Assembly (NCBI GenBank): GCA_965247515.1
Contig: OZ252029.1
Location: forward strand, 6,828,692 to 6,892,691
Reading direction: 5' to 3'
Source: Bryobacterales bacterium
GTDB lineage: Bacteria > Acidobacteriota > Terriglobia > Bryobacterales > UBA6623
DNA length: 64,000 nucleotides
The notes under the pieces were generated by a model, which saw only the letters and a list, made by a program, of their open reading frames with translations, was not told where the DNA came from and did not search any database. Shown here one piece after another: positions 13,268 through 61,628 of this stretch (its first letter is position 1; each line of letters opens with the position of its first letter). Position numbers and translations under genes: made by a program.

Positions 13268-13318
13268 GCCCAACACTGTCGAGTCAGGCGTCGAGACCGC
13301 GACCCGGAGCCGCGACTA

Positions 13319-18205: not shown

Positions 18206-20192
<1,987 letters not shown>

Positions 20193-28444: not shown

Positions 28445-28535
28445 TGGAGGAGAGTGAGGGAATCGAACCCCCGCGTGCGTCTTCGGCACGTCACCGGTTT
28501 TCGAAACCGGAGCCTTCCCGCTCGGCCAACTCTCC
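28445..28535 (-). tRNA. tRNA-Ser(CGA), class II
   Basis: Hand-folded: acceptor ggagagt/actctcc, anticodon loop ttCGAaa, long variable arm, T-loop ggttcgattcc. Confidence 0.7.
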
Positions 28536-28540
28536 AAATT

Positions 28541-28631
28541 TGGCGGAAGGAGGAGGAATCGAACTTCCGTGGGTTTCTCAACCCAGCCTTGCCTTAGCAG
28601 GGCAGCGCCTTACCGCTCGGCCATCCTTCCG
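28541..28631 (-). tRNA. tRNA-Ser(GCT), class II
   Basis: Hand-folded: anticodon loop ctGCTaa, long variable arm, T-loop gttcgattcc. Confidence 0.65.
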
Positions 28632-28636
28632 TCGAG

Positions 28637-28745
28637 CTGGAGCCCCCTGGGTGGAATCGAACCAGCGGCGATCCCCAACATTCAGCACCACCGAGCAGCG
28701 AGTTTACAGCCCGCTTCCGCGCCATGCGGTACGACCCAAATCAAA
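28637..28745 (-). pseudogene. tRNA-like chimera/pseudogene: a Tyr(GTA)-like 5' half joined to an unrelated T-arm/acceptor 3' part
   Basis: 5' part folds as acceptor–D arm–anticodon arm gcggg-ctGTAaa-ctcgc. The 3' part has ttcgatt with a mismatched T-stem, and its acceptor is not complementary to the 5' end. Confidence 0.4.
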
Positions 28746-28748
28746 GCT

Positions 28749-28826
28749 TGGTACCCCGCCCAGGAGTCGAACCTGGAACAACCGGTTTCTAAGACCGGGG
28801 CGTATGCCAATTCCGCCAGCGGGGCA
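28749..28826 (-). tRNA. Class-I tRNA with anticodon UAG (a Leu codon reader on a short-variable-arm body); noncanonical
   Basis: Acceptor gccccgc/gcggggt, anticodon arm ccggt-ctTAGaa-accgg, 5-nt variable loop, T-arm ccagg-ttcgact-cctgg. Confidence 0.5.
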
Positions 28827-28833
28827 TGAGACT

Positions 28834-28910
28834 TGGTAGCCCTGGAAGGATTCGAACCTTCACTTCTCCGCTCTTGAGGCGGACGCCTCTGCCGATTGGG
28901 CTACAGGGCT
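28834..28910 (-). tRNA. Class-I tRNA with anticodon CAA (a Leu codon reader on a short-variable-arm body); noncanonical
   Basis: Acceptor agccctg/cagggct, anticodon arm tccgc-ctCAAga-gcgga, 5-nt variable loop, T-loop ttcgaat. Confidence 0.5.
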
Positions 28911-28915
28911 GATCG

Positions 28916-28991
28916 TGGTAGGCCCGGAGGGAGTTGAACCCCCAACCTCCCGGGTAAAAGCCGGTTGCTCTGCCGGTTGAGCTACGGACCT
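28916..28991 (-). tRNA. tRNA-Lys(TTT)
   Basis: Anticodon loop ctTTTac (C38 is unusual), D-stem gctc/gagc, T-loop ttcaact. Confidence 0.6.
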
Positions 28992-28998
28992 ACGAAAC

Positions 28999-29072
28999 TG
29001 GTGGACCCGGCGAGACTCGCACTCGCATTCTCCCGCTTGCAAGGCGGGGGCTCTGCATTGAGCTACAGGCCC
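28999..29072 (-). tRNA. tRNA-Ala(TGC) with an atypical T-loop TGCGAGT
   Basis: G3·U70 pair present (gggcctg/cgggtcc), anticodon loop ctTGCaa. The T-loop lacks the canonical TTC. Confidence 0.55.
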
Positions 29073-29073
29073 G

Positions 29074-29148
29074 TGGTGGGTTCGGAAGGATTCGCACCCT
29101 CATCGTGATGATTAAGAATCACCTATTCTGCTGTTGAACTACGAACCC
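29074..29148 (-). tRNA. tRNA-Lys(CTT) with T-loop TGCGAAT
   Basis: Acceptor gggttcg/cgaaccc, anticodon loop ttCTTaa. Confidence 0.6.
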
Positions 29149-29158
29149 AGGTTGAAAT

Positions 29159-29236
29159 TGGTCAGGGCGGTTGGATTTGAACCAACGGCATCCCGCGTCC
29201 GAGGCGGGAACTCTGGCCGGACTGAGCTACACCCTG
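29159..29236 (-). tRNA. tRNA-Pro(CGG)
   Basis: C1-G72, anticodon arm cccgc-ctCGGac-gcggg, T-arm gttgg-ttcaaat-ccaac. Confidence 0.65.
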
Positions 29237-29242
29237 AAAATA

Positions 29243-29317
29243 TGGAGAGTCCTGCGGGATTCGAACCCGCACCCTTTGGTTGGAAGCCAAACATGCTGCC
29301 GTTAACACCAAGGACTC
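29243..29317 (-). tRNA. tRNA-Gly(TCC)
   Basis: Acceptor gagtcct/aggactc, anticodon arm tttgg-ctTCCaa-ccaaa, T-arm gcggg-ttcgaat-cccgc. Confidence 0.65.
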
Positions 29318-29324
29318 TCAGAAC

Positions 29325-29401
29325 TGGCGGACCGTATGGGATTCGAACCCATGACCTCTCGGCTGACAACCGAGCGCGCCACCGGACTGCGCCAACGGTC
29401 C
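29325..29401 (-). tRNA. tRNA-Asp(GTC)
   Basis: Acceptor ggaccgt/acggtcc, discriminator G, anticodon arm ctcgg-ttGTCag-ccgag. Confidence 0.7.
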
Positions 29402-29410
29402 GCTTAAACT

Positions 29411-29450
29411 TTGGATCGGAGACCTGGAATCGAACCAGGATCTGGCGTAC
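29411..29450 (-). pseudogene. tRNA 3' fragment (T-arm + acceptor 3' strand + CCA) with no matching 5' half; it abuts the REP/MITE
   Basis: cctgg-ttcgatt-ccagg tctccga t cca; no complementary tcggaga upstream. Confidence 0.45.
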
Positions 29451-29467
29451 TGGAGCCGCGACCGTGA

Positions 29468-29617
29468 GGGGCTGTGAAAAAATGTCGGGGATCCACTTCC
29501 GGCAAGACGGGCTTGGCATGCCAAGCCCCTACGTCGTTGAAAACAAACGATCGTCCGTAGGGGCGAGGCATGCCTCGACCGTCTTTCGCGCTCAACGGGT
29601 GATTTTTTCACAGCCCC
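29468..29617. mobile_element. 150-bp MITE carrying the IS5-like terminal repeats (GGGGCTGTGAAAAAAT ... ATTTTTTCACAGCCCC). Flanked by a TGA duplication and inserted into one arm of a REP palindrome.
   Basis: Ends match the IS5-like element ends at 15206-15217 and 46880-46895. Both flanks read tga. Removing it restores a 27-bp-arm REP (ggagccgcgaccgtgagggagcggttg / caaccgctccctcacggtcgcggctcc). Confidence 0.75.
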
Positions 29618-29620
29618 TGA

Positions 29621-29689
29621 GGGAGCGGTTGCTGGGATCGTTGACGGCCTACCTTTGACAACCGCTCCCTCACGGTCGCGGCTCCAGTC
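29621..29689. repeat. REP-like palindrome (right arm and loop), the target of the MITE
   Basis: gagggagcggttg ... caaccgctccctcacggtcgcggctcc. Confidence 0.7.
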
Positions 29690-29690
29690 T

Positions 29691-29766
29691 TGGCCGGCAG
29701 GGGAGGACTCGAACCTCCATCCCCCTGACTAACAATCAGGCGCCTTGCCGATTAGACCACCCGCCG
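29691..29766 (-). tRNA. tRNA-Asn(GTT) (loop ttGTTag)
   Basis: Anticodon arm cctga-ttGTTag-tcagg, T-arm ggagg-ttcgagt-cctcc, discriminator G. Confidence 0.55.
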
Positions 29767-29773
29767 GCAAACT

Positions 29774-29851
29774 TGGCGGCCGCGGCTGGAATCGAACCAG
29801 CACTGGCTCCGGGCTTCAACCGGACGCTCTACCGCTTGGAGCTACACGGCC
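29774..29851 (-). tRNA. tRNA-Phe(GAA) (G37 in loop ttGAAgc)
   Basis: Acceptor ggccgtg/cgcggcc, D-arm gctc-caagcggta-gagc, T-arm gctgg-ttcgatt-ccagc. Confidence 0.65.
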
Positions 29852-29860
29852 GCGACAAAC

Positions 29861-29936
29861 TGGAACCGGAGGCAGGAATTGCACCCGCATCACTCAAGTT
29901 CGAAGCCCAGGGCCCTATCTGTTGGACGACTCCGGC
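29861..29936 (-). tRNA. tRNA-Arg(TCG)-like with a weak anticodon stem (1 Watson-Crick + 3 G·U + 1 mismatch) and T-loop TGCAATT; possibly a pseudogene
   Basis: All other arms fold canonically. The anticodon loop is ctTCGaa. Confidence 0.4.
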
Positions 29937-29954
29937 ATGACAAGTGAAAGGTGT

Positions 29955-30028
29955 TGGTTGCGGGAGGCGGAATCGAACCGCCCTTGCTGGCTTATGAGAC
30001 CAGACTGGAGCCACTCCAGCTATCCCGC
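29955..30028 (-). tRNA. tRNA-Met(CAT), elongator or Ile2-type (G1-C72)
   Basis: Acceptor gcgggat/tcccgca, anticodon arm ctggt-ctCATaa-gccag, T-arm ggcgg-ttcgatt-ccgcc. Confidence 0.65.
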
Positions 30029-30081
30029 AACAACTGCGTACGCATATTCAGTTGTCAAGGAGCAATGGCACGGACCGTGCC

Positions 30082-30157
30082 TGGCACAGGGTGGAGGCCT
30101 CGAACCCCCACTTGCGGGTTTGGAATCCGCCGTGCTGCCCGCTTACACCAACCCTGC
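30082..30157 (-). tRNA. tRNA-Trp(CCA)
   Basis: Anticodon loop ttCCAaa, discriminator G, T-loop ttcgagg. Confidence 0.5.
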
Positions 30158-32795: not shown

Positions 32796-32868
32796 GGTGG
32801 ATAACGGGATTCGAACCCGCGTCCGTCAGCTCCTAAGGCTGATGCTCTTTCCTCTGAGCTATATCCAG
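32796..32868 (-). tRNA. Isolated class-I tRNA with anticodon UAG and a C1·C72 mismatch; noncanonical
   Basis: D-arm gctc-agaggaaa-gagc, anticodon arm tcagc-ctTAGga-gctga, T-arm gcggg-ttcgaat-cccgt, no encoded CCA. Confidence 0.45.
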
Positions 32869-33473: not shown

Positions 33474-35460
<1,987 letters not shown>

Positions 35461-36174
35461 GCCGAAGCCCCGGCTCAACTCCGTCGCGCAGCGGCGTCCG
35501 CGCCGTGTTCATCACCATCGCCAGTAGCTGGTAGTACCCCATGATGCCGATCGTGTCGATCACACCCTTCTGGCCGAGATACGACAACAGCCGCGCATAG
35601 GTCGGGTCGCTGACTCCTTGGGTTCGCAGCAGCTCCATACAGAAGTCGTACACGGCCGACTCGTCGTCAGCCATGCGCTCCGGACGTCGTCCGTCGGCAA
35701 CCGCCTCGATAATCGCGGCTCCGAGTCCTTCGCTCTCGGCGATCGGAGCATGCGCGGCCCACTCGTAGTTCTGGGTCCAATGGCGCGCGGTGATCAAGAT
35801 GACGAGCTCGCTCAGGCGCGGCGGTAGGGCGCTGCTGAAGCGCACGTAATCGCCAACGTTGCGCGCCCGGCTCAGCATCTCAGGGCTTCGCAGCAGCGGC
35901 ACGAAGGGCCCGCTCAGGCCAGGTCTGTCGCGCGCCGCTTTGAACTCTTCAACGGCCGCCTTCTGTTCGGCGGTCAACTCACTCTCTGGAATCGGGGGCA
36001 TTCGGTCTTGGGCTGTAAGCGTCATAGCGCAGATAAGGAAGACTAGCGCGCCTGTGACTCGCTCGCCTATCCAAAGTACTCGTCGGTGGTAACTGGTCAT
36101 CATTGGTGTCCTTTGAAGCCAGGCACAGCGCGGTAAGCTTCGTGACGCGGGCGGACATGCCGGCCGGCCGCTAG

Positions 36175-37160: not shown

Positions 37161-38331
37161 TTGTACTGAATTGCCAGTGGGACTCTAATGACTAGCGATA
37201 GCTAGCCGAGACACCCTTTGCCCAAGTCCACCGTTTCCTGCGTTGGCACAAGGGCGGCCGTGATGATCGCCGACTCGGTGCAAAGCTTGTCGTACTGCGC
37301 GGCAATGGCTTTCACTCGCCGCCGGGAGCACTCAGTAACGAAAGAAGCTCGTTTTCGAACTCCTTTCCGGCACGGGTGGACTGCCGGCGAAGGGGCGCCG
37401 TGCGAAAGCTATCGAGGGCTTGGGAGTAAGCGTTCCTGGCTTCGTCGGGGCGACCCGACAGCGTCAGAATGACGCCCCGCCGATGAAACCAACGTTCCGA
37501 GGCCATTGCAGGACGAATCTGATCGAGCCGGCCCAAGGCGCGCTCAAACCGGTTGAGCGCTAGCTCGATGTCGATTGTGAAGTTAACGAGTGTGAAGATC
37601 GGGCCCAGCCTTTCGATGCCGTCGTCCACTCCGGCTAGTGCGCGAGCGATGTGGGCCGAACCGGCCGAGATGAGGGTCTTCGCTCGCTCCAGATAATACT
37701 CGGGAGTTGGATTGTCCAGACTAGCGATAACCTTGTCGTAATCGGCGGCCGCGGCCCGCGGCTGCTCCAGCTTGGCCAGCAGCCTTGCGCGCGTTAGCAG
37801 GCCCTCGCGGTGGTCCGGCGACGCTTCCAAGAGGCGGTCAAGATCAGCCTTGGCTGCCGGCCAGCGGCCGGCCTCAAAGAACATACGCCCGCGGACGAAG
37901 GGGATTGCAGTTGAATCCGGGCTGAGCTCAGCCGCGCGCCGGTAATCCGCCAGCGCCGAGTCCCAGTCACGGTGGAGACGGTGCAACTCACCTCGCTTGA
38001 TGTAGAGATCGGCGTTGTCCGGGTCTGCGGAGATGCGCTTATCCATGTCTTTCTGGAGTGAACCCCAAGCGTGAGACAGTCGAAATCGGGACAGGTTACG
38101 ATTCACCGCAAAACGCTTGCCTTCTTCGCTGTATCGTCGCACGCTGGTCCTAGCCGGGGAAGCGGAAGCGGGCTCTGCTGGAGAGCAACCGCCAAGGAAT
38201 ACCCGGCCGCAAACTCATCAAGACGATGAGCGCCGGGGGCGGCCGCCAAGGTCGCTCCCGGCTTCTCCAACGCCGGCGATGTCTCCCTGCCCGCCCAGGG
38301 CCCATCGGATTGATAGATTTGCCTATGCCTC

Positions 38332-39290
38332 TCAAAACTCATACTTCGGATTCCTCGCTGCTGTTGCCGCCGGCCGCGCCAGCGCTTCAAACTCCGCCGG
38401 CGGACGATATCCCAACGCCGAATGCAGCCGGCGTTGGTTGTAGATCTCATCAATGAACTCGCCGATCGATGCGCGCGCCTCGTCAAGCGTGCGATAACGC
38501 TGCAACCAAACCTCCTCCGCCTTCAACGTCTTCATGAAACTCTCCGCCCGCGCGTTGTCGTAGGGGTTGCCGCGGCGGCTCATCGAGATGATCGCGCCGT
38601 GCTGCTCCAGCAGCTCGACATAGGCGCTCGAAGCGTACTGTACGCCTTGGTCGGAATGATGCATCCACCCCGCGGCAGGGCGTCTGAGCTCGAGCGCATC
38701 GCGCAACGCCCCTACAGCCAGCTCAGCTTTGAGCGTCGTCCCCAGCCGCCAGCCGACCACGCGTCGCGAGTAGGCGTCCAACACCACGGCGAGGTAGACG
38801 AACGCCTCGCGCAAGCGAATGTAGGTGATATCGGATTGCCACAACTGATCGACGCCGTCCACATTCAGGTGCGCCGCTAGATTCGGATAAACAGGTAAGA
38901 AGTGGTTCGAATCCGTTGTTAGCACGAAGCGCCGCTTGAGTACCGCCAGCAAGTTGTCCTTACGCATCATCCGCAGGACCTTTTTGTGATTGACGAGGAA
39001 GCCTTGGCGGCGCAGCTCGGCCGTCACGCGGCGGTAGCCGTAACGACGATTCTCGAGCGAAATCCGCTGCATGCGGTCACGCAATTCCATGTCGCACTCG
39101 GCGGGCGACGACACGGCGAGCCGGCGATAGAACCCGGCGCGATTCACGCGTCCGAGCTCGCAGGCGTGTTCGACGCTGAGCGAGCCTTTGGCGCTGATCT
39201 GCTCGACGATGGAGTAGATCCGCTCGCGCCACCGGCGTCGTTGGTCGGGGCTGCGAGGTTCAAGGCGCGAAAGGCTTGTCCGAAAAAATC
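38332..39290 (-). CDS. IS3 OrfB (DDE integrase core), reached by a -1 frameshift from orfA
   Basis: rve-domain motifs ..HSDQGVQYAS..NPYDNARAESF... The long ORF seen in the track is a read-through artefact that includes host sequence. Confidence 0.75.
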
Positions 39291-39587
39291 GAGCTCTGCG
39301 GCTTGTTTGCCGAGCAGTCGTTCGAGCTCTGCGATGCGTTCGTCGCGCGGATCGCGAGGGATCTTGGGCGGCGCCGAGCGGCCGGGTTTCGGCCGGCCTC
39401 GCCGCCGGCTCAAGCCGTTGACGCCTTCCTGGCGATAGGCGTCCCGCCAGCGGTACAGCAGGCTGCGCTTGACGTCCAACTCGCGGCTTAGCGCTGTGCC
39501 GCTCTGGCCGGCTAGGAGCCGCCTGGCGGCGGCTTCCTTGAACTCCACCGTGAACTCCCGCGGCTTGCGCGGCTTGAGACTTTCCAT
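39144..39587 (-). CDS. IS3 OrfA (HTH + leucine zipper)
   Basis: MESLKPRKPREFTVEFKEAAARRL.. Ends just after a gatttttt slippery run. Confidence 0.75.
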   Translation of the reverse strand: MESLKPRKPREFTVEFKEAAARRLLAGQSGTALSRELDVKRSLLYRWRDAYRQEGVNGLSRRRGRPKPGRSAPPKIPRDPRDERIAELERLLGKQAAELDFFGQAFRALNLAAPTNDAGGASGSTPSSSRSAPKARSASNTPASSDA

Positions 39588-39777
39588 CCTGGACTCCTTT
39601 CCATTCGCTGAAATTCGTCCCAAATTTCAATGTCTCATTTTTAGGGTTCACTCCATTCAGCCGCTCATGGACGCCCGCGTGGCCGTCTAACTGAACCGGC
39701 CACAGCAGGGCCACGGCCGTCATGAGGACCGAGAGGATTGCTGTTGGAGCCCTTGTCATAAAGATAGATGGTCTCGG

Positions 39778-42700
39778 CTAGAGTACGGACGCCGTGTCAG
39801 TGGTCTCCACATTGCTGCCTGGAGCATAGGTGTACCCGGCAAGCGTCAGGCTAGTGACCGTGAAGCGGAAGATGTCGCCGGATGACGCCTTCTCCTTCGA
39901 CGAGTTGACCGTAACGGCCCCGCTTCCGGAGGTCGTTCCCGAGGAGCTGCCGATCGGAGCGCTGTTGAGCTCCCATGATCCCGTTACTTGCACGCTGCCG
40001 ATCGGCGAGCCGTTCTGGTCCTCTACCGTCACCGCTGCCGCGCCCGTGAAGTTCTTGCCTTGCTGGCTCAGCGAGACAGCGATGTCGGCGACATGCATGC
40101 TCTGCCGCACGATTTCTTCGGGCGTTGCGGAAGCCTCATTCGAGGCCGCCGACTCGTTTGCGCTCGTATCCCGCGACGTGACGACATAGTAGACCGGCGT
40201 TCCCGCCGCGAGTCCAACATCGGTAAACTGACTCGCTGAAAGGCCCGACGCTACCAGGCTGTAGCCGCTGCCTGAGACGGTCGAGCGATAGACCAGGAAC
40301 TCGGCCCAGTCGGGGTCGGTTGTGTTGTCAGGCCAATCGAGGGAAACGGAGCCGGGACCCGCCGCCGCCGCCGACGCACCCGGCGCGGCGGGAGGATCGG
40401 TATCAGGCGGACCGACAGAGCATGCGCTTCCATCGATGTCCACACACGCCGCCGTTTCAACGTTGGCGTTTGGATCATAGTCGAAACCGGCGGCCGAGAC
40501 GCCCGTGACGGTGATGATGAACTGACCGGAAAGCGAACGGTCGACTCGATCGGAGTCGAATTTTACGCTTCCAGTGGCGCCGGTTAGGCCGCTCTCGGCG
40601 TCACTGGTCAGACCGCTCCATTGGGCGGTGACGCTCGCACCGTCAACTGGGGCGCCGCCTTCGTCGACGATCGAGACGACCGCGCGGGCGTATCGGCGCT
40701 TGCCGGCGTTGCGTTTAACGATTGAGATCGAGCCGACATGCATCGTCGGCGCGGCCGTCGGGTCGGTTGTCACGTTCAAGGTCCCGCTGGGGGCCGAGCT
40801 GTTCCCCGCGGCGTCTCGAGCGATGACGTGGTAACCGTAGGCCGTCGCGGCGGTGAGGCCGGAATCGGCGAAGTTTGTCGTGTCGCCAGCCGTGCTGCCG
40901 GCCAATCCGCCGTCGCGGTAGACGTCGTAGGCCGTGACCGCAACGTTGTCTGTCGAAGCGGCCCAGCTGATCGTGACGGTTGTGTCGGTCTTAGACACCT
41001 CGGTCGGCGTGCCTGGGGCGGTCGGATCTTCGCTGTCCGGCGGCGGATCGGTCGTGACCATCAGGGCCGGGCTTTGGCTCGACTCGTTGGCGGCGGCGTC
41101 GACCGCGGAAACCGTGTAGCCGTAGCTGTAATCCGGATCGAGACCGGTATCGGTGAAGGTCAAGGCCGCCGTCGTGCCGAGTTCGACCGTGTCACGGAAG
41201 ACGCGATAGTGGTCGACGCCGACGTTGTCAGCCGAGGCGTTCCATTGCAGCTCGACCTCGGTATCAGTATTCGAAACCAGCGCCAGTCCGGTCGGGATAT
41301 CGGGCGGGTCGCTATCGACGAACGCGCTGTATCGAACCGTCAGCCGCGGACGCTGCGTTGCGGTTGCGTAATCGCTGGAGCGAAAATCCAGGCCGTCGCT
41401 CGTAGCGGAGTTGGCGATGATGACGCCGTGATTCGTCGAGGGGGAGTTCACCCAGCCCTGCACCGCGGCGATCCCGTCGGCGTTGAGAATCACTTTGTAG
41501 GAACCCGCCGTTCCAGCGGTAATGCTCCCGAGAACCAGCGCTCCTCGGTCGCCCGGCCCCTGGGCTCCGGCCGTGTCCCAGGCGTTCCCGGGCGAATACT
41601 CGTTCCAGGTGGCGCCGGTCTCGAACCAGTCACGATTGAGCTGATAGATGTCGTAAACGCCGCCGCTGATGTTGAAAACCTCGATGTCGATTTCAGCCGA
41701 ATCGACGGTCGACCCGGTTGGAATCGCCGACACGTCCCACTCCATGAGCGATGCCAGATCATTGCCGCTGCCGCCGGGATCGTCGCCGTCGGCCAACAGC
41801 GTGCCGGACAATCCGAAGTTCGAGGTCGGGGCGTTCTGAGAAATGTAAGTGTCGCTCGTACCGTCGTAGCTCGCGTCCGGCGAAACCCCTTCCTGGAACG
41901 ATTCGGTCACGATGTCAATGTGGCCGAACGCGGCCTGAGAATTAGGCGCAATCGGATTGGACGACAAGTCGACGACGTTGTTGACCGTCAATGTGTAGGT
42001 GATGGCGACGCTCAGAGGCGTGACGGTCAACGTTACGACTCGGGCGGACGCATCTAGCGATGCCGCACTCACCGTGACGCCGTTGTCGATCGTGTAGTTA
42101 GCCGCCGCCTCCGCGCTGGTCTGCTCGACTCGTTCGCTGAAGTTCACGACCACTTCCGTTGCTGGGCCTTCCGACTCGACCGAAGAAATCGTCGGGAGAG
42201 TCGTGTCGGGTCCCTTCAGAATCGTGAAGTCATCCAGGACATTCGTGTTGTTGTCCAAGTACTTAACGTCGAGACGGCCGCCGTCGAAGTCGAGCACCAC
42301 CGAGCCAAGAGCGTTGAGCGAAAGGAACATGGCCGGGTGGTTGAGAGCGCCGCCACTGATCTTTCCCGACGCGCCCGCCACCGCATACACGGCCCCCTCA
42401 TGGGGAACATCCGCCGCGAACGTCTTCGAGTAGGCGCCGTCGCCTAGTTCATTGCCATCCCCAGCGTCCACTTGCATGGCCGGGATGAACGTGCCTGACG
42501 AGCCGTAATGGCCGTCAATGAGGTAGGACCGCTCGTAGGAATGGCTGTGACCCGTCAGGATTAGGTCGACGCCGTGCTGCTCCAGGATCGGCAGAGCGTT
42601 CTGACGCATGTCGATCAAGCGGCCCAGTGTCCGAATTATGCGAGCCCTTGGTGTAGGGCGGGTGGTGCCAGAACGCGATAAGCCAGGGCTCGTCGTTGGC

Positions 42701-46876: not shown

Positions 46877-48778
46877 TAAGGGGCTGTGAAATAAACCCGT
46901 CGTGGCCGCCGAAGCTCCCCTGGGGCGGTTCGGAATGGCGCGAGTGGATCAAAATGGGATAAAACATGAGGGCAAACGAATGTTCGGATAACTTGGCGGC
47001 GGCGTCCAACGCCCTTATTATATGGGCGAACAACAGGTCTTAGTCGAGCTCAGGCAACGCCCCGCCAAGCCGCGCCAAGCCGTGCCCGTTGACCAACTGC
47101 AGCTGCGACAGCCCAATCGCGACCAATTCACCTATGCCGCGATCGACGTCGAACGGCTCGTGCCGGCCGACCATCTGGTGCGCGCCATCTGGGAGCTGAG
47201 CGGCATGCTCGACCTGTCCGGCTTCGCTGCTCATCTGGAAACCCGCAAGGAGTCCGCCGGGCGGCCGGCATGGGATCCGCGGTTGCTGGTCGCGATCTGG
47301 ATCTGGGCGTATTCGGAAAGGATGAGCTCGGCGCGTGAGATCGCGCGTCAAAGCCGCTATCGGCCGGAGTTGGAGTGGTTGTGCGGCATGGCGGTCGTCA
47401 ATCATCACACTCTTTCGGATTTTCGGGTATTCCACTCAAAAGCTCTCGAGAACTTGTTGACACAGGTATTGGCGCTGCTGAGTCAAGAGGGGCTGGTGGA
47501 TCTCGAGCAGGTGGCCGTCGACGGCACGCGGATCCGGGCGCAAGCCTCGGGCGGGTCGCAACGCAGGCGTCCGACGCTCGAGCGGCATCTCGAACAAGCG
47601 CGCGAAGCGGTGCGTCAACTCTCGGAAGAAGCCGACGACGAGGGTTCGAATCGGCGGCGTCAGGCGGCGCGTAAGCGGACCTTGCGGGAGCGAGTCGAGC
47701 GGATGGAGCAGGCGCTGGAGGAACTGCCCAAGGTCGAAGCGGGCAAGCGCGACGAAGAGCAACGACGCCAGGCGCGGGTGAGCGAGAGCGAGCCGGAAGC
47801 GCGCCCGCAACACGAATCCAACGGCGGTTGGGGACTCGGCTACAACGCGCAGCTGGCGACCGACGCCAAAGAGAAGATCGTGGTCGGCGTGGAGTTGACC
47901 AACAACGCCTCCGATGCGGGCCAGCTGACCCCGACGCTGGACGATGTGGAAGGGCGCTTCGAGCGAACCCCGAAGCAAGTGTTAGCGGACGGGGGCTACG
48001 CCAACCAGGCCAACATCGAGGCGCTGGCAGCCGCTGAAATCGAATACGCGACGCCGGCGCCGGCGCCGGACAAGGGCTCGAAGGCGGCGTTGAAGGCGGC
48101 GGGAATTGGGCCGCGCTACGCGCCGAAGTTTTTCATCTACGACGAGGCGACAGACACGTTTCTGTGTCCGGCCCAGCGGACCTTGACGTATCAGCGATCG
48201 TCGCTGAAGCGGAAGCGCAAATATCGGCAGTATCAGGCAAAAGAAGCTGATTGTCGCGAATGCGCACAGCGGCACAAGTGCTGCCCCAAGAGCGGTCATC
48301 GAACGTTGAGCCGCAGCGAAGAGAACGCGGTGATGGCGAAACATCGGCGCTGGATGGAGAGCGAGCGTGGGCGGGCGGCGTATCGCAAGCGGTCCGAGAC
48401 GGCGGAGTTTCCGAACGCCTGGTTGAAAGAGCGATTGGGGGTGCGCAAGTTTCGAGTACGAGGGCTGCGGAAGGCGCGATCGGAGCTTTTGTGGGGGGTT
48501 TTGGCGTACAACATTGCGGCTTGGATCCGGCTGGTCTGGCGTCGTGGGCCGGAGTGCGGGCTGGCGGCGCAAGCGGCGGCGTAGCGGCGGTTGGGGGGGC
48601 GAAAAGGGCCGGGAAACGGCCCGAAACGACCGTTTCCGGGCCGCTTGGGCGGCCAATCAGGAGTCGAGGCGCAGAAGTTGCGGTTTCGGCAGGGGCGGCG
48701 TTCGGCAGCGCTGAGCTTGGCGTGCGCTTGGCGCTCCCGCGCGCCGACGCGACAATAGGTTTTCTTCACGGCCCCTTA
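46877..48778 (+). mobile_element. IS5/IS1182-like insertion sequence, copy 2 (inverted relative to copy 1)
   Basis: Same terminal repeats. The right end abuts REP sequence cggtcgcggctccggg. Confidence 0.8.
47022..48584 (+). CDS. IS5/IS1182-family DDE transposase (copy 2; a few substitutions vs copy 1)
   Basis: 520 aa, 99% identical to the 13513-15075 ORF. Confidence 0.8.
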   Translation: MGEQQVLVELRQRPAKPRQAVPVDQLQLRQPNRDQFTYAAIDVERLVPADHLVRAIWELSGMLDLSGFAAHLETRKESAGRPAWDPRLLVAIWIWAYSERMSSAREIARQSRYRPELEWLCGMAVVNHHTLSDFRVFHSKALENLLTQVLALLSQEGLVDLEQVAVDGTRIRAQASGGSQRRRPTLERHLEQAREAVRQLSEEADDEGSNRRRQAARKRTLRERVERMEQALEELPKVEAGKRDEEQRRQARVSESEPEARPQHESNGGWGLGYNAQLATDAKEKIVVGVELTNNASDAGQLTPTLDDVEGRFERTPKQVLADGGYANQANIEALAAAEIEYATPAPAPDKGSKAALKAAGIGPRYAPKFFIYDEATDTFLCPAQRTLTYQRSSLKRKRKYRQYQAKEADCRECAQRHKCCPKSGHRTLSRSEENAVMAKHRRWMESERGRAAYRKRSETAEFPNAWLKERLGVRKFRVRGLRKARSELLWGVLAYNIAAWIRLVWRRGPECGLAAQAAA

Positions 48779-49370
48779 CGGTCGCGGCTCCGGGGCGCCC
48801 GCCCGGCCGCAGCGCATCGAGATAGATACTCATACCGCGCCCGCACAACCGTATGACAGCAGGGTCCCTTGCGCCCTTTGCCAGACCCGCGGCGTCGCAA
48901 TCGACACTCATGTCAACGTAGCCCCGAGCCTTCGAGCTTCTAAGCGACTCCGCCAGCTCGTCTCTCACGTCGTCAATCAGGCGCTGGAGCTTCACCTGAA
49001 AGGCATCGTCGGTAACGGACAACTCCTGAACGAGGTTGTTGAGAGGACACCCCAGTTCCGATATCTTCTCGTCGCCGCTGCTCATCCCCTCGAGAATCGC
49101 CGCAATGCCCTCCACCGGATCCGGCGAGCTCCTCAGCGGTCCGAGCCACGCCCGATCGATATACGATCGAATCACTTCATCTACGATCGCACGACCCAGC
49201 GCCGCCTTGTTCTCGAAGTGATAATAGAACGCTCCCTTCGTCAATCCGATCCCATCGAGAATGCGATCAAGGCTTGCGGCGCGAAAGCCCAGGCGGCGCA
49301 CCTGCTCGTAACTGGCAGCGAGAATCTGATCCCGCGTCTCAGGCGTTTGAGTCGATGCTTTCGCGATCAT
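48657..49370 (-). CDS. TetR-family transcriptional regulator. Its C-terminal ~40 codons run into the REP/IS end.
   Basis: N-terminal TetR HTH ..LGFRAASLDRILDGIGLTKGAFYYHF.. Confidence 0.7.
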   Translation of the reverse strand: MIAKASTQTPETRDQILAASYEQVRRLGFRAASLDRILDGIGLTKGAFYYHFENKAALGRAIVDEVIRSYIDRAWLGPLRSSPDPVEGIAAILEGMSSGDEKISELGCPLNNLVQELSVTDDAFQVKLQRLIDDVRDELAESLRSSKARGYVDMSVDCDAAGLAKGARDPAVIRLCGRGMSIYLDALRPGGRPGAATVRGREENLLSRRRAGAPSARQAQRCRTPPLPKPQLLRLDS

Positions 49371-53031: not shown

Positions 53032-53255
53032 CCCTCGTCCGGCCAGGCGTACTTGGCCGCCAGAGACCAAACCACGGCGGCCGCGCAGCAATAGACAGCG
53101 TGGTAGGCGAGCCCGATGGGCATGAAGCCAAACACGAGGGTCGAGTCATTCCACCACCAAAAGTCGTGGTGCAGAATCGCCAGAAGCAAGATCAAGAGGT
53201 AGACAACCGCGCGAGGCATCGAACGAGGAGCCAGGGTAGCATCCCCGCAGTCCAT
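53028..53255 (-). CDS. DUF3311-like small membrane protein partner of SSS transporters
   Basis: 75 aa, two TM segments, HHDFWWWN motif, translationally coupled to the transporter. Confidence 0.6.
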   Translation of the reverse strand: MDCGDATLAPRSMPRAVVYLLILLLAILHHDFWWWNDSTLVFGFMPIGLAYHAVYCCAAAVVWSLAAKYAWPDEG

Positions 53256-53652
53256 TCCGCACGACTTGTCTTCAAGTCGGGAATTGGGTTCGTTTCGAAA
53301 TTAAGCTATTTTGGGGCCAAGTTTTCGATGGCAGTACTCCTGGTACGTTGATCCTGCAAGCCAAGCGAGGCGATCAAGATGTGAAGCCCCCCCGTTGTTA
53401 TGCGGGCCATTCCGGGCAAAAGCGGAAATCTGTGGGTAAGACCGTGGAAGCTGTGAGCCGTGGGCGGCCGGCCGTTGGCGGTTGGGTGGGACATGTCGGT
53501 TTTAGTATGACTTGCGTTTCGGCTCCTGCCTCGGGACGGCGAGCGCAAGTTGTTGATGAGTCGATGCTTACTTTTTTCGTAAAGCGGTGATGACAGGTCG
53601 AAGCTGACGAACAGGCGCGAATCGGGCCCCGTCCCCGCAAGCGCCCCCTGCT

Positions 53653-53964
53653 TCACTGCTGCTTGACTTTGGCGTCGTAGAGATTCATCCCGTACGCCTC
53701 TTTGACCGCGTTGATCAGGTCCGCCACCTTGACCTGTTCGGCGTCATACTTCACGACGGCTTCGTTTTTGGACAACGAAACGTCCACCCCTGCTACGCCC
53801 TTGACCGATTCGAGTGCAGACTGCACTACGTCGACGCAGGCTGTTCACGTCATCCCGATGATCTCGAGGGTCACCGTTTTCTCTTTCGCGGGCGTTTCCG
53901 CGAACGCAGCGCCGGCGAGCATGGCCGCCGCGGAAATGCTCGCCGCGAAAATACGTCTTAGCAT
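53653..53964 (-). CDS. Periplasmic HMA-domain (MerP/CopZ-like) protein with in-frame TGA at the first Cys of the GMTCxxC motif (GMT-U-TAC); candidate selenoprotein
   Basis: Signal peptide MLRRIFAASISAAAMLAGAAFA, then TVTLEIIGMT-TGA-TACVDVV...KVADLINAVKEAYG (HMA fold). A bulged-U hairpin with GUC loop lies 17-30 nt 3' of the TGA. Confidence 0.5.
53811..53832 (-). promoter_or_regulatory. SECIS-like hairpin: CG-U(bulge)-AGUGCA-GUC-UGCACU-CG
   Basis: Upper stem and loop UGCA-GUC-UGCA with a bulged U below. This resembles the E. coli fdhF SECIS apical region UGCA-GGUC-UGCA with bulged U. Confidence 0.45.
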
Positions 53965-53998
53965 GTCGTCCTGCTCTAAGGCTGAGCTTGGCTTCTTG

Positions 53999-54400
53999 TT
54001 ACATCCCCATGCGTGGCATGGTCTTGATCTGATCGGCCGTCTTGCCGGGGATGGCGCCGTCGCCGGCGTGCCAGCCTCCCTTGCATTCGTTACAAACAGG
54101 CATGTCTTTCGCGGCGTTCATACCGCACGGGCACTGGCCCATCTTTAGCGCGCAAGAGCTGCAAGCGGTCCTGAGGCAACAGGCGTACTTGCCGTCCGCC
54201 ATCGCCTGAGCTTTGACTTTTTCGATCTGAGCATCGGCCTTCTGCATGGCTTTCGGCCGATTCATCATCATTTGCTTCATCATTTCCATTTGCTTCGACA
54301 TGCCTTCGTCGCTTTGGGCGATCGCGACAGCGCCCCAGCCCGCGGTGAAAACAGCCAGCGCGAGCAGAGCGGACATGAAGAACTTGCTGCTGGGGTTCAT
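53999..54400 (-). CDS. Secreted Cys-rich protein (14 Cys; CxxC/CPC clusters); possible metal-binding partner
   Basis: Signal peptide MNPSSKFFMSALLALAVF. C-terminal ..YACCLRTACSSCALKMGQCPCGMNAAKDMPVCNECKGGWHAG.. Confidence 0.4.
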   Translation of the reverse strand: MNPSSKFFMSALLALAVFTAGWGAVAIAQSDEGMSKQMEMMKQMMMNRPKAMQKADAQIEKVKAQAMADGKYACCLRTACSSCALKMGQCPCGMNAAKDMPVCNECKGGWHAGDGAIPGKTADQIKTMPRMGM

Positions 54401-54647
54401 TTGACGCCTCCTACGCGTAACTTCTCGCGGCACGCATGCGGTTGACGGCTCCTGGTCCCGGCTCGCACAGCGCGCCTGTCGGGGTGGAACCGGACTGAAG
54501 CGGCGACAACGAACCCGGGGACCTTCGCCTCCGTTTCTTTCTCTACCTGAGTATTCGCGCCCGGCGGCAAGCCAGTTACTTCGAGCCGAAGAATTTGCCT
54601 ACGTACTCGCGGACTCCGCTCACTCGAAAACCCACTCCACCGGTCGA

Positions 54648-54830
54648 GTGCGTCGCCGCCCCGGAGCCGTGCGCGTCAGCAAGCGGTTGCCCGCGGTTGC
54701 GACAACCGCTCCCTCACGGTCGCGGCTCCTGGGCGGCCGTTTTCATCCCTTTGGGTGGGCCGTCAGGCCCATGGGGCATCGCGCCGTCAGATCAGAGCCG
54801 CGACGGCGAGGGAGCGGGGTCCGCATTCAT
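54648..54830. repeat. REP-like elements (two arms plus spacer)
   Basis: ccggagccgtgcgcgtcagcaagcggttg ... caaccgctccctcacggtcgcggctcc ... gagccgcgacggcgagggagcgg. Confidence 0.7.
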
Positions 54831-55225
54831 CATTCGAAGCTCCTCGCGAACTTCCCGTACGAGCGCTCCCTACGGTGGAAACCGTTGTCGCCCTCGGTGC
54901 GGTCGGACTGGCGTTCGCTGGTTATCGTGAGAGAACAGCGGCTCATGGAACCAACGACCCAGCGTTTCGTGCAATGGGCCGAAGAGACGGTTGTCGAAGG
55001 GGATAATGTTCATGGCTGCCTCCTTGGCGTTTCGTTCGCCACATGATGTGGAGCAAGTTGGTTGCCAAATCAGCCACGCTGAATCGCCGCTCGAGCGCGG
55101 GCGATTCGGCGGCGATCGGGGGATGACACCCATCCGGGCGAGCTGCCGCACTGCCGCATGCGCGGCCCACAACCCGTTAGCGGCCCTATAATTGCTCTGA
55201 CCCCTCATGTAAGGACCCCTTATGA

Positions 55226-56095
55226 ATGTTTAGATTCGCCGCTAAGCAGACAGCCGTCCGGATGCGCGAGCTGGATCGCCAGATCAAGCGCTGCCGGCGC
55301 ACCCAACATGAGGAGCCGATCCATGACCTACGAGTGGCGACCCGCCGCTTGCAAAGTTGCCTGAAAATTTTCGGCAAGTTGTTCCCGGCGCGGCCCGTTC
55401 GAAAGACGCTACAGCGATTGCGTCGGATGCGAGCTCTCGCCGGGACGGTGCGCGACTATGACATCGCCATTGCGCTTGCAATCGAGTCGAGTGACCGGGA
55501 AGGGCGCCTTGTCAATCATCTGCGCGCTCGGCGAAGCGAGGCGGCCGATGCGTTCGCGGCGCGGCTCAAGTCGTGGCCCAAGCCCGGAAGTATTGAGCGT
55601 TGGCGGGCCGACCTGCGGCTGGAGAGAGAGCCGGCGGCGAAAAAGCTCTCAGCGAGCGGCTGGGATGCGGGGCGCTCCGCGGCTGTAAACGCTGGGAAGA
55701 CCTTACCGCCGCTGTGCGCGAAGTTCTTCCGAGAAGGACACGAACTACTTAGAAGCTCGTGTGACGACGCCGCGCTGCATCGCTTCAGGATTCGAGCAAA
55801 GCGCTTTCGCTACACGCTCGAGATCTTCGAACCGTGCTACGGCAGGGGCCTGAGGAAGTGGGTCGACTCCCTCAAACTACTCCAAGAACACCTGGGCTGG
55901 ATCAACGACTGCCAGACAACGCAAGCGTTGATCAGCCGCGAGCAGGTCGCTTGCTTCGCGCAAGAAGCGCTCGAATTTGGTCAATTCCTCAAGTCCACGG
56001 CGCGCCTACGCCGGGCCGCGGCGGTCGAGCTCTGGGGTGACCGCTTCCGCCGCCGGAAGGTCGAGCGCCGATGGGTCCACTACCTCTCCCGCTAG
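55226..56095 (+). CDS. CHAD-domain protein
   Basis: HDLRVATRRLQSCL and repeated His/Arg-rich helices are characteristic of CHAD. Confidence 0.65.
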   Translation: MFRFAAKQTAVRMRELDRQIKRCRRTQHEEPIHDLRVATRRLQSCLKIFGKLFPARPVRKTLQRLRRMRALAGTVRDYDIAIALAIESSDREGRLVNHLRARRSEAADAFAARLKSWPKPGSIERWRADLRLEREPAAKKLSASGWDAGRSAAVNAGKTLPPLCAKFFREGHELLRSSCDDAALHRFRIRAKRFRYTLEIFEPCYGRGLRKWVDSLKLLQEHLGWINDCQTTQALISREQVACFAQEALEFGQFLKSTARLRRAAAVELWGDRFRRRKVERRWVHYLSR

Positions 56096-57938: not shown

Positions 57939-60900
57939 CCCTGACACTGGCCTCGTGCACGACCAAACCGAGCCCGCACCACCCGCGCAACAGACACTTG
58001 AGACCTGGAAGGAGATTGCCGCCCACCTAAGGCGAGACGTGACTACTGTCCGACGCTGGGAGAAGCGAGAAGGGCTACCAGTCCATCGTCATCAACACGA
58101 CTCAGGTGTCAGCGTGTACGCCTTCCCCGGCGAACTCGATGCGTGGAGAAGAAACCGCAGACTGGCGGGAGTAAAGCCGTCGTCCACGCGCGCGTCGATT
58201 GCCAGGCGCGTGGCCGTGGCGATTGCATTTGCAGCAGCCGCCGCCGTGGTCCTCAAGGGTCCGATTTTGGACCCTCCAAACCCGAGCGCGTCCGCCGATG
58301 ACGGGCTGCAAGCCGAGCGCCTCTTTGCGGGCGCCGACATCGAAACGTTTGGATCAGTTTCTCCCGACGGCCAGTGGGCGACATTCACCGACTGGAGTTC
58401 TGGCGACTTGGCGGTTAAGGACCTCGAATCGACCCAGACCCGTCGATTGACCACGAAAAACTCATGGGACGTCAATGGGTCGTTCACGATGAACGCTGTG
58501 GTATCACCCAGCCGCACAACGGTGGCCTACAATTGGATGCTCCCAAACGGCAACTGGGAGCTTCGGGTAGTGGGGTGGGAAGGGGGACCCGGAAAAAAGA
58601 TCGCTGGAGGCTCCGAAACTCCATGGATACAGCCAATGGCTTGGGCCCCCGATGGTTCGCAGATCGCGGTTTGGGCGTCCTACGATCAAACGCGCAAAAA
58701 CCTCTCGCTCGTAACACCTGACGGCTCATCAAATCGAGTCTTAAAGGAACTCGACGCCGCTCCGAGCGCTGTCCGGTTTTCACCCGACGGGGGCCAAATC
58801 GCGCTGAGTGTCCCTGCCCAGAACTTCGAGAAGCATGACATCTTCTTTCTCTCGATTGCAGACGGAACTACGACAAAGGTTCTGTATCACCCCGCGGACG
58901 ATCGGTTCGTCGCGTGGGTTCCGGATGGCCGCGGTGTTCTATTCTTGAGCGACCGCCGCGGACCTGATTTCGATCTCTGGTGGCTGCCGGATCTTGAATC
59001 GAACGACAGACCCCGCATTGTTCATCGCTCTATCGGCCTAGTTCAACCACTGGGGATTACCGCCGCCGGCGAACTTTACTATCAGCCAAGCCAGAGTAGT
59101 TTGCAAGATCTTTACTCGGTGGAGATTGATCCCAAGTCGGGGAAAGTCTTTGGCGGCCCCGAGCCTGTATTGACCAGTCCCGTGGGTAAAACGCGGAGAG
59201 GTGATTGGTCCCCAGACGGCTCGAAGATCGCGTTTGTCGTGCAGGATGGCTATGACGTCAGGCCCGGCTGGCGGACCCTCTGGCTCTACGACGTATCGAC
59301 CGGTAGAACCAACCAAGTCCTGATGGATCTATACGGCGCTTCTACGCCTTCATGGTCGCAAGCTGCTTGTCTGGGGTGTCGACCGAGACCTGCGGAAAGG
59401 CTTCTACATCTTTGACATCGAATCGCGCACGGTGACGAATGTCGTCGCGGAGGAGCCTCAGGAGGCTATTAGCGGACGGGCCCTCTGGGATGCATCCGGC
59501 GATTCGATCTACTACGGCGTCATCGGCTTCGAAGAGCCAAGAGGTCTGAATATCTTTCGACAATCGCTCGCCGGGGGCGTACGGGAATCTGTGTATAGAA
59601 AGAATGGCCGATTGCTTGTACCGTCAATAGCGATTTCTCGCGACGGTTCTCTGATTGCGGTAGGCGCCTCGCGCTCGAACCCCGGTGACTGGGAGGTCTC
59701 AGTCGTCCCCACCGCAGGTGGTCAGTCGCGAGTGTTGGTTCGGCTCGAGATTGGAGTGAACCCCAAGCGTGAGACAGTCGAAATCGGGACAGGTTACGAT
59801 TCACCGCAAAACGCTTGCCTTCTTCGCTGTATCGTCGCACGCTGGTCCTAGCCGGGGAAGCGGAAGCGGGCTCTGCTGGAGAGCAACCCGCCAAGGAATA
59901 CCCGGCCGCAAACTCATCAAGACGATGAGCGCCGGGGGCGGCCGCCAAGGTCGCTCCCGGCTTCTCCAACGCCGGCGATGTCTCCCTGCCCGCCCAGGGC
60001 CCATCGGATTGATAGATTTGCCTATGCCTCTCAAAACTCATACTTCGGATTCCTCGCTGCTGTTGCCGCCGGCCGCGCCAGCGCTTCAAACTCCGCCGGC
60101 GGACGATATCCCAACGCCGAATGCAGCCGGCGTTGGTTGTAGATCTCATCAATGAACTCGCCGATCGATGCGCGCGCCTCGTCAAGCGTGCGATAACGCT
60201 GCAACCAAACCTCCTCCGCCTTCAACGTCTTCATGAAACTCTCCGCCCGCGCGTTGTCGTAGGGGTTGCCGCGGCGGCTCATCGAGATGATCGCGCCGTG
60301 CTGCTCCAGCAGCTCGACATAGGCGCTCGAAGCGTACTGTACGCCTTGGTCGGAATGATGCATCCACCCCGCGGCAGGGCGTCTGAGCTCGAGCGCATCG
60401 CGCAACGCCCCTACAGCCAGCTCAGCTTTGAGCGTCGTCCCCAGCCGCCAGCCGACCACGCGTCGCGAGTAGGCGTCCAACACCACGGCGAGGTAGACGA
60501 ACGCCTCGCGCAAGCGAATGTAGGTGATATCGGATTGCCACAACTGATCGACGCCGTCCACATTCAGGTGCGCCGCTAGATTCGGATAAACAGGTAAGAA
60601 GTGGTTCGAATCCGTTGTTAGCACGAAGCGCCGCTTGAGTACCGCCAGCAAGTTGTCCTTACGCATCATCCGCAGGACCTTTTTGTGATTGACGAGGAAG
60701 CCTTGGCGGCGCAGCTCGGCCGTCACGCGGCGGTAGCCGTAACGACGATTCTCGAGCGAAATCCGCTGCATGCGGTCACGCAATTCCATGTCGCACTCGG
60801 CGGGCGACGACACGGCGAGCCGGCGATAGAACCCGGCGCGATTCACGCGTCCGAGCTCGCAGGCGTGTTCGACGCTGAGCGAGCCTTTGGCGCTGATCTG

Positions 60901-61628
60901 CTCGACGATGGAGTAGATCCGCTCGCGCCACCGGCGTCGTTGGTCGGGGCTGCGAGGTTCAAGGCGCGAAAGGCTTGTCCGAAAAAATCGAGCTCTGCGG
61001 CTTGTTTGCCGAGCAGTCGTTCGAGCTCTGCGATGCGTTCGTCGCGCGGATCGCGAGGGATCTTGGGCGGCGCCGAGCGGCCGGGTTTCGGCCGGCCTCG
61101 CCGCCGGCTCAAGCCGTTGACGCCTTCCTGGCGATAGGCGTCCCGCCAGCGGTACAGCAGGCTGCGCTTGACGTCCAACTCGCGGCTTAGCGCTGTGCCG
61201 CTCTGGCCGGCTAGGAGCCGCCTGGCGGCGGCTTCCTTGAACTCCACCGTGAACTCCCGCGGCTTGCGCGGCTTGAGACTTTCCATCCTGGACTCCTTTC
61301 CATTCGCTGAAATTCGTCCCGAATTTCAATGTCTCATTTTTAGGGTTCACTCCAGATGCTTGAACGAGACAGCCTCGCTTTCTCCCCCGACGGAGCCTAT
61401 CTCTACTACTCAACGAACTTGAGCGGCAACTTCGCTCGTCCGGACCCGGCAATCTTTCGAGTCGCCGTAGACGGAGGCGAGCCCGAGAAATTGGACGTGA
61501 AACTAGATCGCCGCGCCAATGCGTTAAGGGTTCACCCGGACGGCTCGCGAATCATGTTCACGGCTCTGCAGGCAACGGGAGAGTTGTGGGTGCTTAGGAA
61601 TTTCCTCCCATCGGAGGCTGACAAATGA
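57844..61628 (+). pseudogene. Membrane-anchored HTH regulator with a periplasmic TolB/PD40 beta-propeller. It is interrupted by IS3-family copy 2 and also has a frame break near 59340.
   Basis: ..TWKEIAAHLRRDVTTVRRWEKREGLPVH HTH, a TM helix, then PD40 repeats (FSPDG..). Removing the IS and one gat restores ..VRLEMLERDSLAFSPDGAYLYY.. in frame. The C-terminus ELWVLRNFLP is typical. Confidence 0.65.
59752..61354 (-). mobile_element. IS3-family insertion sequence, copy 2 (3-bp target duplication gat)
   Basis: Same IRs as copy 1. orfA 60843-61286 and orfB 60031-60989 on the minus strand. Confidence 0.85.

Follow-up and report, generated by a model that had tools for sequence, protein, structure and literature searches.

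The DNA analysed here (the window) is a stretch of 64,000 nucleotides from the genome of a Bryobacterales bacterium (GenBank assembly GCA_965247515.1, contig OZ252029.1, forward-strand positions 6,828,692 to 6,892,691). Its minus strand carries a gene split by an in-frame TGA which, judged from its sequence and those of its relatives, is very probably a MerP-like selenoprotein gene with a genuine selenocysteine (Sec) codon. The first open reading frame (ORF) starts at an ATG at 53964, spans 39 codons (MLRRIFAASISAAAMLAGAAFAETPAKEKTVTLEIIGMT) and is closed by TGA 53847-53845. Past this codon the frame is unchanged and reads TACVDVVQSALESVKGV...KVKQQ (full stretch, TACVDVVQSALESVKGVAGVDVSLSKNEAVVKYDAEQVKVADLINAVKEAYGMNLYDAKVKQQ) up to a stop TGA at 53655-53653. 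The following features were assigned to the gene (SECIS, selenocysteine insertion sequence; U stands for Sec in protein motifs):

53653..53964, minus strand: coding sequence of the putative HMA/MerP-like selenoprotein, 103 codons with predicted Sec at codon 40, plus stop; two ORFs in the same frame split by the TGA alone, a layout common to 85 orthologues
53899..53964, minus strand: predicted signal peptide, residues 1-22, consisting of MLRR, a hydrophobic core and AFA; likely cleavage before ETPAKEK (by inspection)
53695..53871, minus strand: HMA domain, residues 32-90, from a PF00403 match, alignments with HMA domains of the PDB and the model of a Cys orthologue (P0002)
53845..53847, minus strand: in-frame TGA, codon 40, read as Sec; first ligand of GMT-U-xx-C
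53836..53838, minus strand: TGC, Cys43; second ligand of UxxC
53811..53830, minus strand: SECIS-like hairpin within the coding sequence, codons 46-52; CG, bulged U, AGUGCA / UGCACU, CG, with the apical loop GUC at 53821-53819

The in-frame TGA and its counterparts in related genes

Orthologues were collected in two scans, the first over GTDB species genomes and the second over JGI metagenome contigs. These gave 85 sequences with 47-71% identity; the hosts named are metagenome-assembled genomes (MAGs) of Terriglobia, Bryobacterales and other Acidobacteriota together with one bin labelled Nitrospira, and the family's MAGs and metagenome contigs appear to come mostly from soil and groundwater. 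The first-pass annotation, which was made from the window sequence by itself, had proposed a search with the Cys version of the protein in order to compare TGA with Cys in orthologues. The outcome favours Sec: codon 40 is TGA in 81 of the 85 orthologues, TGC in three and TAA in one. The TGA, its flanks and the hairpin that follows it are conserved over at least 85 acidobacterial family sequences. The copy with TAA (L118; JGI Ga0075425_100422326) has several odd residues downstream and is a decaying copy or a poor read.

Sec and Cys codons interchange between close relatives. The Cys forms nest inside Sec clades; one of them (L053, TGC) is 98% identical at the DNA level to a TGA form (L058), and L009 likewise carries TGC. 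More distant HMA homologues have Cys at the Sec position throughout.

Both sides of the TGA bear the marks of a protein-coding sequence. On the 5′ side, T-V-T-L and G-M-T are 86-100% conserved while third codon positions are free to vary, which indicates that this part is translated in frame and is under selection at the protein level. On the 3′ side, Cys43, V, A, L and G are 99-100% conserved, and codon 43 specifies Cys in all 71 unique sequences (TGC 39, TGT 32). A general reassignment of TGA in this genome is ruled out because the codon serves as an ordinary stop, ending about half of the confident ORFs, including those of dnaE2 and of a group II intron reverse transcriptase.

A pseudogene or an artefact, that is, a nonsense substitution or base-call error in a Cys-type HMA gene followed by a chance hairpin, would be compatible with the single window sequence, and L118, with its TAA, looks degraded. 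The identical split gene, TGA included, was nevertheless found in more than ten independent assemblies of the same population, which rules out a base-call error. The TGA also recurs in orthologues down to 47% identity with the frames intact on both sides, and the synonymous sites of the hairpin are under selection (see below). On these comparative sequence data this explanation is already refuted, and the chance that it applies is negligible.

Annotation pipelines split the gene in the same way. When proteins were searched with the Cys version, 18 clusters came back; 15 of them are proteins of 56-58 residues opening at a GTG or ATG just past the TGA, and gene callers thus cut the family at the same point everywhere. 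The remaining clusters are two partial calls (88 and 94 residues) and one full-length Cys form (P0002). The 90%-identity cluster of one 57-residue fragment (P0003) also holds a protein of 1792 residues (P0020, from Logan assemblies), which was probably called under a code with TGA as a sense codon.

The hairpin downstream of codon 40

The hairpin CG-U-AGUGCA-GUC-UGCACU-CG claimed in the first-pass annotation was located at 53830-53811. Orthologues align without gaps from the TGA onward, and RNAalifold, run without being prompted, returned a single 7-bp helix with a 3-nt loop (alignment columns 20-36), in which 97.6% of the alignment cells are paired. The spacing from UGA to loop is fixed at 23 nt across the family. 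Hairpin statistics were taken over the 71 unique sequences. Five inner pairs are retained in 70-71 of these, whereas 65 retain the outermost one; the loop always begins with G and reads GUC in 66, GGC in four and GGA in one. The closing pair forms a compensatory series (A-U 57, G-U 10, G-C 3, never A-C), and the codon preceding the helix core has only A or G as its third base, opposite an invariant U.

Synonymous positions within the hairpin are markedly constrained. The entropy of its four-fold degenerate sites ranges from 0 to 1.0 bits (mean 0.40), against a mean of 1.42 bits for 17 other such sites within the same 105 nt (Mann-Whitney p=0.00075); the Val codon GTG is frozen in 71 of 71 sequences and the Ala codon GCA in 69 of 71. 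To judge from the aligned sequences, the hairpin is conserved as RNA beyond coding needs, with the frozen synonymous sites as the decisive signal, and this result is given more weight than covariation.

The model of bacterial SECIS elements (bSECIS) asks for 3-9 nt in the loop, 4-16 bp in the stem and a G in the first two loop positions, together with 16-37 nt from UGA to loop and a minimum free energy of -7.5 kcal/mol or lower (PMC13188914 Fig. 2). With its 3-nt loop, G as the first loop base, a consensus stem of 7 bp (in the window 6 bp, a bulged U and 2 bp) and the spacing of 23 nt, the hairpin lies inside these bounds, the energy of the window 20-mer being marginal.

The near-identity to the core of the Escherichia coli fdhF SECIS that had been pointed out in the first pass was checked on NC_000913.3, where the sequence is TGCAGGTCTGCAC, against TGCAGTCTGCAC in the window. 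Written as RNA, the cores are UGCA-GGUC-UGCAC in fdhF and UGCA-GUC-UGCAC in the window and differ by one loop base; in both, the loop begins with G followed by G or U, and both elements lie just 3′ of the UGA and inside the ORF. The arrangement is TGA-N18-GGTC-TGCAC in fdhF and TGA-N23-GTC-TGCAC in the window, where the loop is one base shorter. The bulged U, earlier regarded as diagnostic of bacterial SECIS elements, is a feature of this lineage only: a C-G pair stands there in other lineages, and the family consensus, in a further difference from fdhF, is an unbroken 7-bp helix.

Fold, relatives and proposed function

For profile searches Cys was placed at codon 40 of the window protein (103 residues). 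Pfam HMA (PF00403) matched residues 32-90 over profile positions 1-59 of 62 (E=3.7e-15; 56.5 bits against a gathering cut-off of 24.8), and alignments with HMA domains of the PDB set codon 40 on the first Cys of GMTCxxC (MerP 1AFI at 9.5e-11). The original description of a signal peptide and a full HMA fold broken only by a TGA at the first Cys proved correct. The signal peptide was called by inspection of the sequence, without a predictor; inspection of the orthologues also showed N-termini that are all basic and then hydrophobic, ahead of a conserved (A)KE.TVTL.

The structure was taken from the AlphaFold (AF2) model of the Cys orthologue P0002, which is 58% identical to the window protein. 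Its secondary structure (E32-39, H44-56, E60-66, E71-76, H83-93, E100-104) follows the order beta-alpha-beta-beta-alpha-beta, with C43, the equivalent of Sec, in the loop between beta1 and alpha1 and C46 in the first turn of helix 1. Model confidence (predicted local distance difference test) is about 70-79 in the domain and low for residues 1-27. The closest solved structures are MerP 1AFI (template modelling (TM) score 0.86, 41% identity) and MerP 1OSD (TM score 0.92), with identities of 37-41% to the model. With its predicted signal peptide counted in, the protein has the architecture of MerP with a putative Sec as the first ligand. In one clade of metagenome contigs (L124-L126 and L128), about 19 additional residues (CKLVPTERSSLPRVRPSYTRLLYM) are inserted between strands beta2 and beta3 of the HMA domain, and the motif is GIT-U-SAC in place of GMT-U-xxC.

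The protein lies near two curated NCBIfam families and is a member of neither. The best match, NF041115, scores 65.9 bits with the window protein and 70.2-75.2 bits with the four orthologues tested, below its cut-off of 95, and the Cys at the second motif position in 71 of 71 sequences likewise rules out membership. TIGR02052 (MerP) comes second: the window protein reaches 59.6 bits and the orthologues 63.4-68.3 bits; membership of this equivalog was ruled out by scores below the cut-off of 92.55 and by the lack of a mer operon around the gene. The CopZ families NF033794, NF033795 and NF047957 reach 54.9-58.2 bits against cut-offs of 85-95, and these scores together with the N-terminal signal peptide rule out a cytoplasmic CopZ copper chaperone.

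No paper describing an acidobacterial UxxC family was found in a literature search, and we know of no experimentally characterised HMA-type selenoprotein. The first-pass annotation had spoken of an unusual selenoprotein family, which overstates the case since HMA-type selenoproteins are already catalogued (NF041115, NF045683 and the MerP of PMC2398784). 'Mercuric transport protein MerP' is listed as a previously described selenoprotein family in the Global Ocean Sampling (GOS) marine survey (PMC2398784 Table 2), and the HMA-type selenoproteins reviewed comprise a UxxC cation-transporting ATPase (ABB15669.1), a MerT-type transporter and the UxxU metal-binding protein NF041115 (PMC9312934, PMC13188914). 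According to these reviews they are established as computational predictions only.

Among these, NF041115 is the top curated family for the window protein and the four orthologues and is likewise a small protein with a single HMA domain and Sec in the metal-binding motif. It differs in having UxxU (two Sec), where the window family has UxxC (one Sec) and acidobacterial hosts; furthermore, its profile of 74 positions begins at the mature domain (position 1 corresponds to window residue 26), leaving the signal peptide outside the model. The GOS selenoprotein is MerP-type by name and documents that Sec-containing MerP-like proteins had been catalogued by 2008 (PMC2398784); it comprises two marine sequences with no motif given and 0 Cys homologues, and was compared by its table entry. 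MerP itself (TIGR02052; 1AFI, 1OSD) shares the signal peptide, the single HMA domain and the GMTCxxC-type loop and is the best structural match to P0002, whereas the window protein has a predicted Sec for the first Cys and its gene, mostly free-standing in the family, has no merT, merA or merR beside it. The P-type ATPase ABB15669.1 shares the UxxC motif, and the MerT/CopZ fusion NF045683 is also an HMA/CopZ-type selenoprotein; in both, the domain is part of a membrane transporter, whereas the window protein would be free, exported and about 80 residues long.

The gene product is, with considerable confidence, a small exported HMA-fold selenoprotein closest to the periplasmic mercury-binding protein MerP, with Sec40 inserted by means of a SECIS within the ORF and most likely a soft metal bound at the Sec40/Cys43 pair. 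The central claim of the first-pass annotation, a Sec-encoding UGA in place of the first ligand Cys with a SECIS downstream, is strongly supported by the conserved TGA, the Cys variants, the in-frame flanks, the fit of the hairpin to the bSECIS model and its frozen synonymous sites. What we infer concerns how Sec is inserted, whether the protein is exported, which metal it binds and to what partner it might hand this on, and would run as follows. UGA at codon 40 would be decoded as Sec, with the hairpin, whose loop lies 23 nt downstream within the coding sequence, acting as a bacterial SECIS and, by analogy with E. coli, recruiting SelB carrying Sec-tRNA(Sec). The signal peptide would direct the protein to the periplasm and would probably be cut after AFA (residue 22), leaving a mature domain of about 80 residues. 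Sec40, placed in the loop that joins beta1 to alpha1, and Cys43, in the opening turn of helix 1, would form a two-coordinate selenolate/thiolate site, which may capture Hg(II) or Cu(I) as a soft metal ion in the manner of Cys14/Cys17 of MerP.

Several results weigh against this interpretation. Covariation in the hairpin is modest, with changes on both sides in one pair and a shuffle control of 28/500, and the conserved peptide V-Q/R-S-A-L fixes part of the hairpin sequence; the Cys forms also keep the hairpin. The isolated 20-nt window hairpin has a free energy of -7.0 kcal/mol, just short of the -7.5 of the model (family consensus hairpin, -8.1 kcal/mol; 60-nt context of the window hairpin, -17.9 kcal/mol), and no Rfam family fits it, either at gathering thresholds over the whole window or at E<=10 over 53600-54000. 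A 71-nt stretch of the window folds no better than dinucleotide shuffles (z=0.08). The earlier argument that a nonsense mutation plus a chance hairpin of this kind is unlikely therefore fails for the window alone and holds for the comparison of orthologues, in which TGA predominates and the hairpin is conserved; because the fold of the window sequence alone is unexceptional, its significance rests on that comparison. As to the decoding machinery, tRNA-Sec is absent among the 16 tRNA genes found by ARAGORN in the window and from 43 loci, selA, selB and selD were not found among 54 inspected window ORFs, and motif scans for SelD, SelA and SelB over about 800 kb of fetched loci gave nothing. As to the surroundings, about 10 kb on either side of the gene contain neither a mer nor a cop operon, no neighbour of the gene recurs across 85 loci, and MerR-family regulators occur near it in two lineages only, 1.4-1.8 kb away. 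A search of the window for further selenoprotein genes (in-frame TGA with coding signal on both sides) gave five weak candidates, none of them convincing.

The same absence of Sec machinery from the 64-kb window and about 800 kb of loci would suit a UGA that is passed without Sec, by near-cognate read-through (Trp, Cys or Arg) or by termination and re-initiation at GTG 53826 to yield a 39-residue peptide and a 57-residue fragment, with the hairpin serving some other purpose; gene callers do annotate the 39-residue and 57-residue ORFs apart. The shorter product of such a scheme would, however, lack strand beta1 and the entire metal-binding loop, and the sequence 5′ of the TGA is under protein-level selection in the same frame. 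Codon 40, moreover, falls opposite Cys in every alignment and is interchanged with Cys codons only, and the hairpin obeys the bSECIS rules and has almost the sequence of the fdhF SECIS core. Decoding without Sec is accordingly judged highly improbable.

The function of the UxxC pair allows a further alternative, in which the selenoprotein is real and the motif is a redox or metalloid-handling centre, not that of a metal-ion chaperone. The protein would then act in the periplasm as a thiol/selenol oxidoreductase with a selenenylsulfide in its cycle, or take part in the handling of selenite, arsenite or tellurite. UxxC is the commonest motif among bacterial redox selenoproteins (PMC9312934, PMC13188914), most lineages have no metal-resistance operon around the gene, and a thioredoxin/glutaredoxin-like gene lies near one orthologue locus. 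The fold, on the other hand, is that of a ferredoxin-like HMA domain and not of thioredoxin, the GMT-x-xx-C loop equals that of metal-binding HMA domains residue for residue, the nearest structures are MerP and metal-binding domains of Cu-ATPases, and metal binding also characterises the curated families that come nearest. A role in redox chemistry or metalloid handling is therefore considered unlikely, though less so than decoding without Sec, and binding of a soft metal is preferred.

A new, unannotated acidobacterial family of an already known selenoprotein type is thus described, which changes no concept. We lean slightly towards the wider statement that this is an unrecognised family of exported MerP-like selenoproteins, widespread in Acidobacteriota, which in the periplasm bind Hg(II) or Cu(I) through a selenolate/thiolate pair and of which databases contain only 57-residue fragments. 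Database copies found for the family are all truncated ORFs (mostly 56-58 residues) except one Cys form, because no curated model captures it and the NCBI selenoprotein models miss it; the alignment of 85 sequences together with the SECIS consensus would permit a family model and re-annotation in Acidobacteriota genomes. With this family, a phylum credited in 2006 with four selenoproteins in three selenoprotein families (PMC1794560 Table 2) would gain an exported, metal-binding member of its selenoproteome; the 2006 count also lends phylum-level support to the use of Sec. A mature protein of about 80 residues with natural Cys variants and an fdhF-like SECIS core would make an attractive test case for Sec as a ligand of Hg(II) or Cu(I). 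If the proposal is true, the family provides a natural protein, small and tractable, in which Sec binds a metal without belonging to a redox enzyme, and selenium availability is tied to mercury or copper handling in a dominant soil phylum.

Genomic surroundings and other features of the window

Upstream of the selenoprotein gene lie a short spacer and a gene for a Cys-rich protein:

53965..53998, minus strand: intergenic spacer of 34 nt, with AGGA 4 nt before the ATG of the selenoprotein gene
53999..54400, minus strand: upstream gene, adjacent to the selenoprotein gene in this lineage only; its product is a secreted protein of 133 residues whose N-terminal segment is rich in Met and which has 8 invariant Cys

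The ORF of the Cys-rich protein (133 residues, 54400..53999) ends 34 nt upstream of the selenoprotein gene, no terminator-like site was found between them, and the two genes may be co-transcribed. In the first pass they had been suggested to form a periplasmic pair for metal or metalloid handling. A tblastn search with the Cys-rich protein over 116 loci, those of orthologues and others that had been fetched, reached E=1.1 at best, and none of four homologues of the protein on long contigs has an HMA gene nearby; a conserved pair was rejected on these two results, and the adjacency belongs to this lineage only and not to a conserved system.

A scan of 53200-55300 revealed no promoter-like site and terminator-like sites at chance level, and Rfam gave nothing in the 825-nt region upstream. 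At 55067-55052 on the minus strand, a sigma-54-type -24/-12 element (TGGCAACCAACTTGCT) departs from the consensus at one position; a strong Shine-Dalgarno sequence comes after it, and then a 47-codon ORF that by eye resembles the N-terminus of a small heat-shock (Hsp20) protein (55067-54830, minus strand). The motif ERSYGKFARSFE occurs in another frame about 100 nt downstream. The segment 55067-54830 looks like a frameshifted or deleted Hsp20 remnant that fills much of the 825-nt gap upstream of the operon. The sigma-54-like site was rejected as the promoter of the selenoprotein operon, since it precedes the Hsp20 remnant instead.

Pfam matches on the identical 20-kb neighbourhood were CHAD, GCS2, a sigma-54 activator, DUF3311/SSF and a glycosyltransferase. 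Suspected MerT-like ORFs at two orthologue loci (L014 and L019) gave no Pfam match, and MerR-family regulators alone were confirmed there.

Elsewhere in the window, 15 tRNA genes lie within 1.7 kb on the minus strand (28445-30157; Ser, Ser, Leu, Leu, Lys, Ala, Lys, Pro, Gly, Asp, Asn, Phe, Arg, Met, Trp), and a separate tRNA-Leu(tag) gene (32796-32868, minus strand) duplicates an anticodon of the array. The array is enclosed by two nested inverted repeats. The inner one consists of group II introns at 18197-20192 (plus strand) and 33474-35469 (minus strand), which are 1996 nt long, 100% identical and each provided with a reverse-transcriptase ORF of 443 residues. The outer one consists of insertion sequence (IS) copies at 13299-15218 and 46879-48798, of 1920 nt and 99% identity, with a DDE_Tnp_1 transposase of 520 residues. 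The enclosed region could be an invertible or mobile segment, or reflect assembly symmetry. Two direct copies of what by eye resembles an IS3-family element lie at 38189-39800 and 59888-61500 (minus strand), with transposase ORFs of 475 and 473 residues whose C-terminal parts are identical; counting these and the other IS copies, the window is unusually rich in mobile elements.

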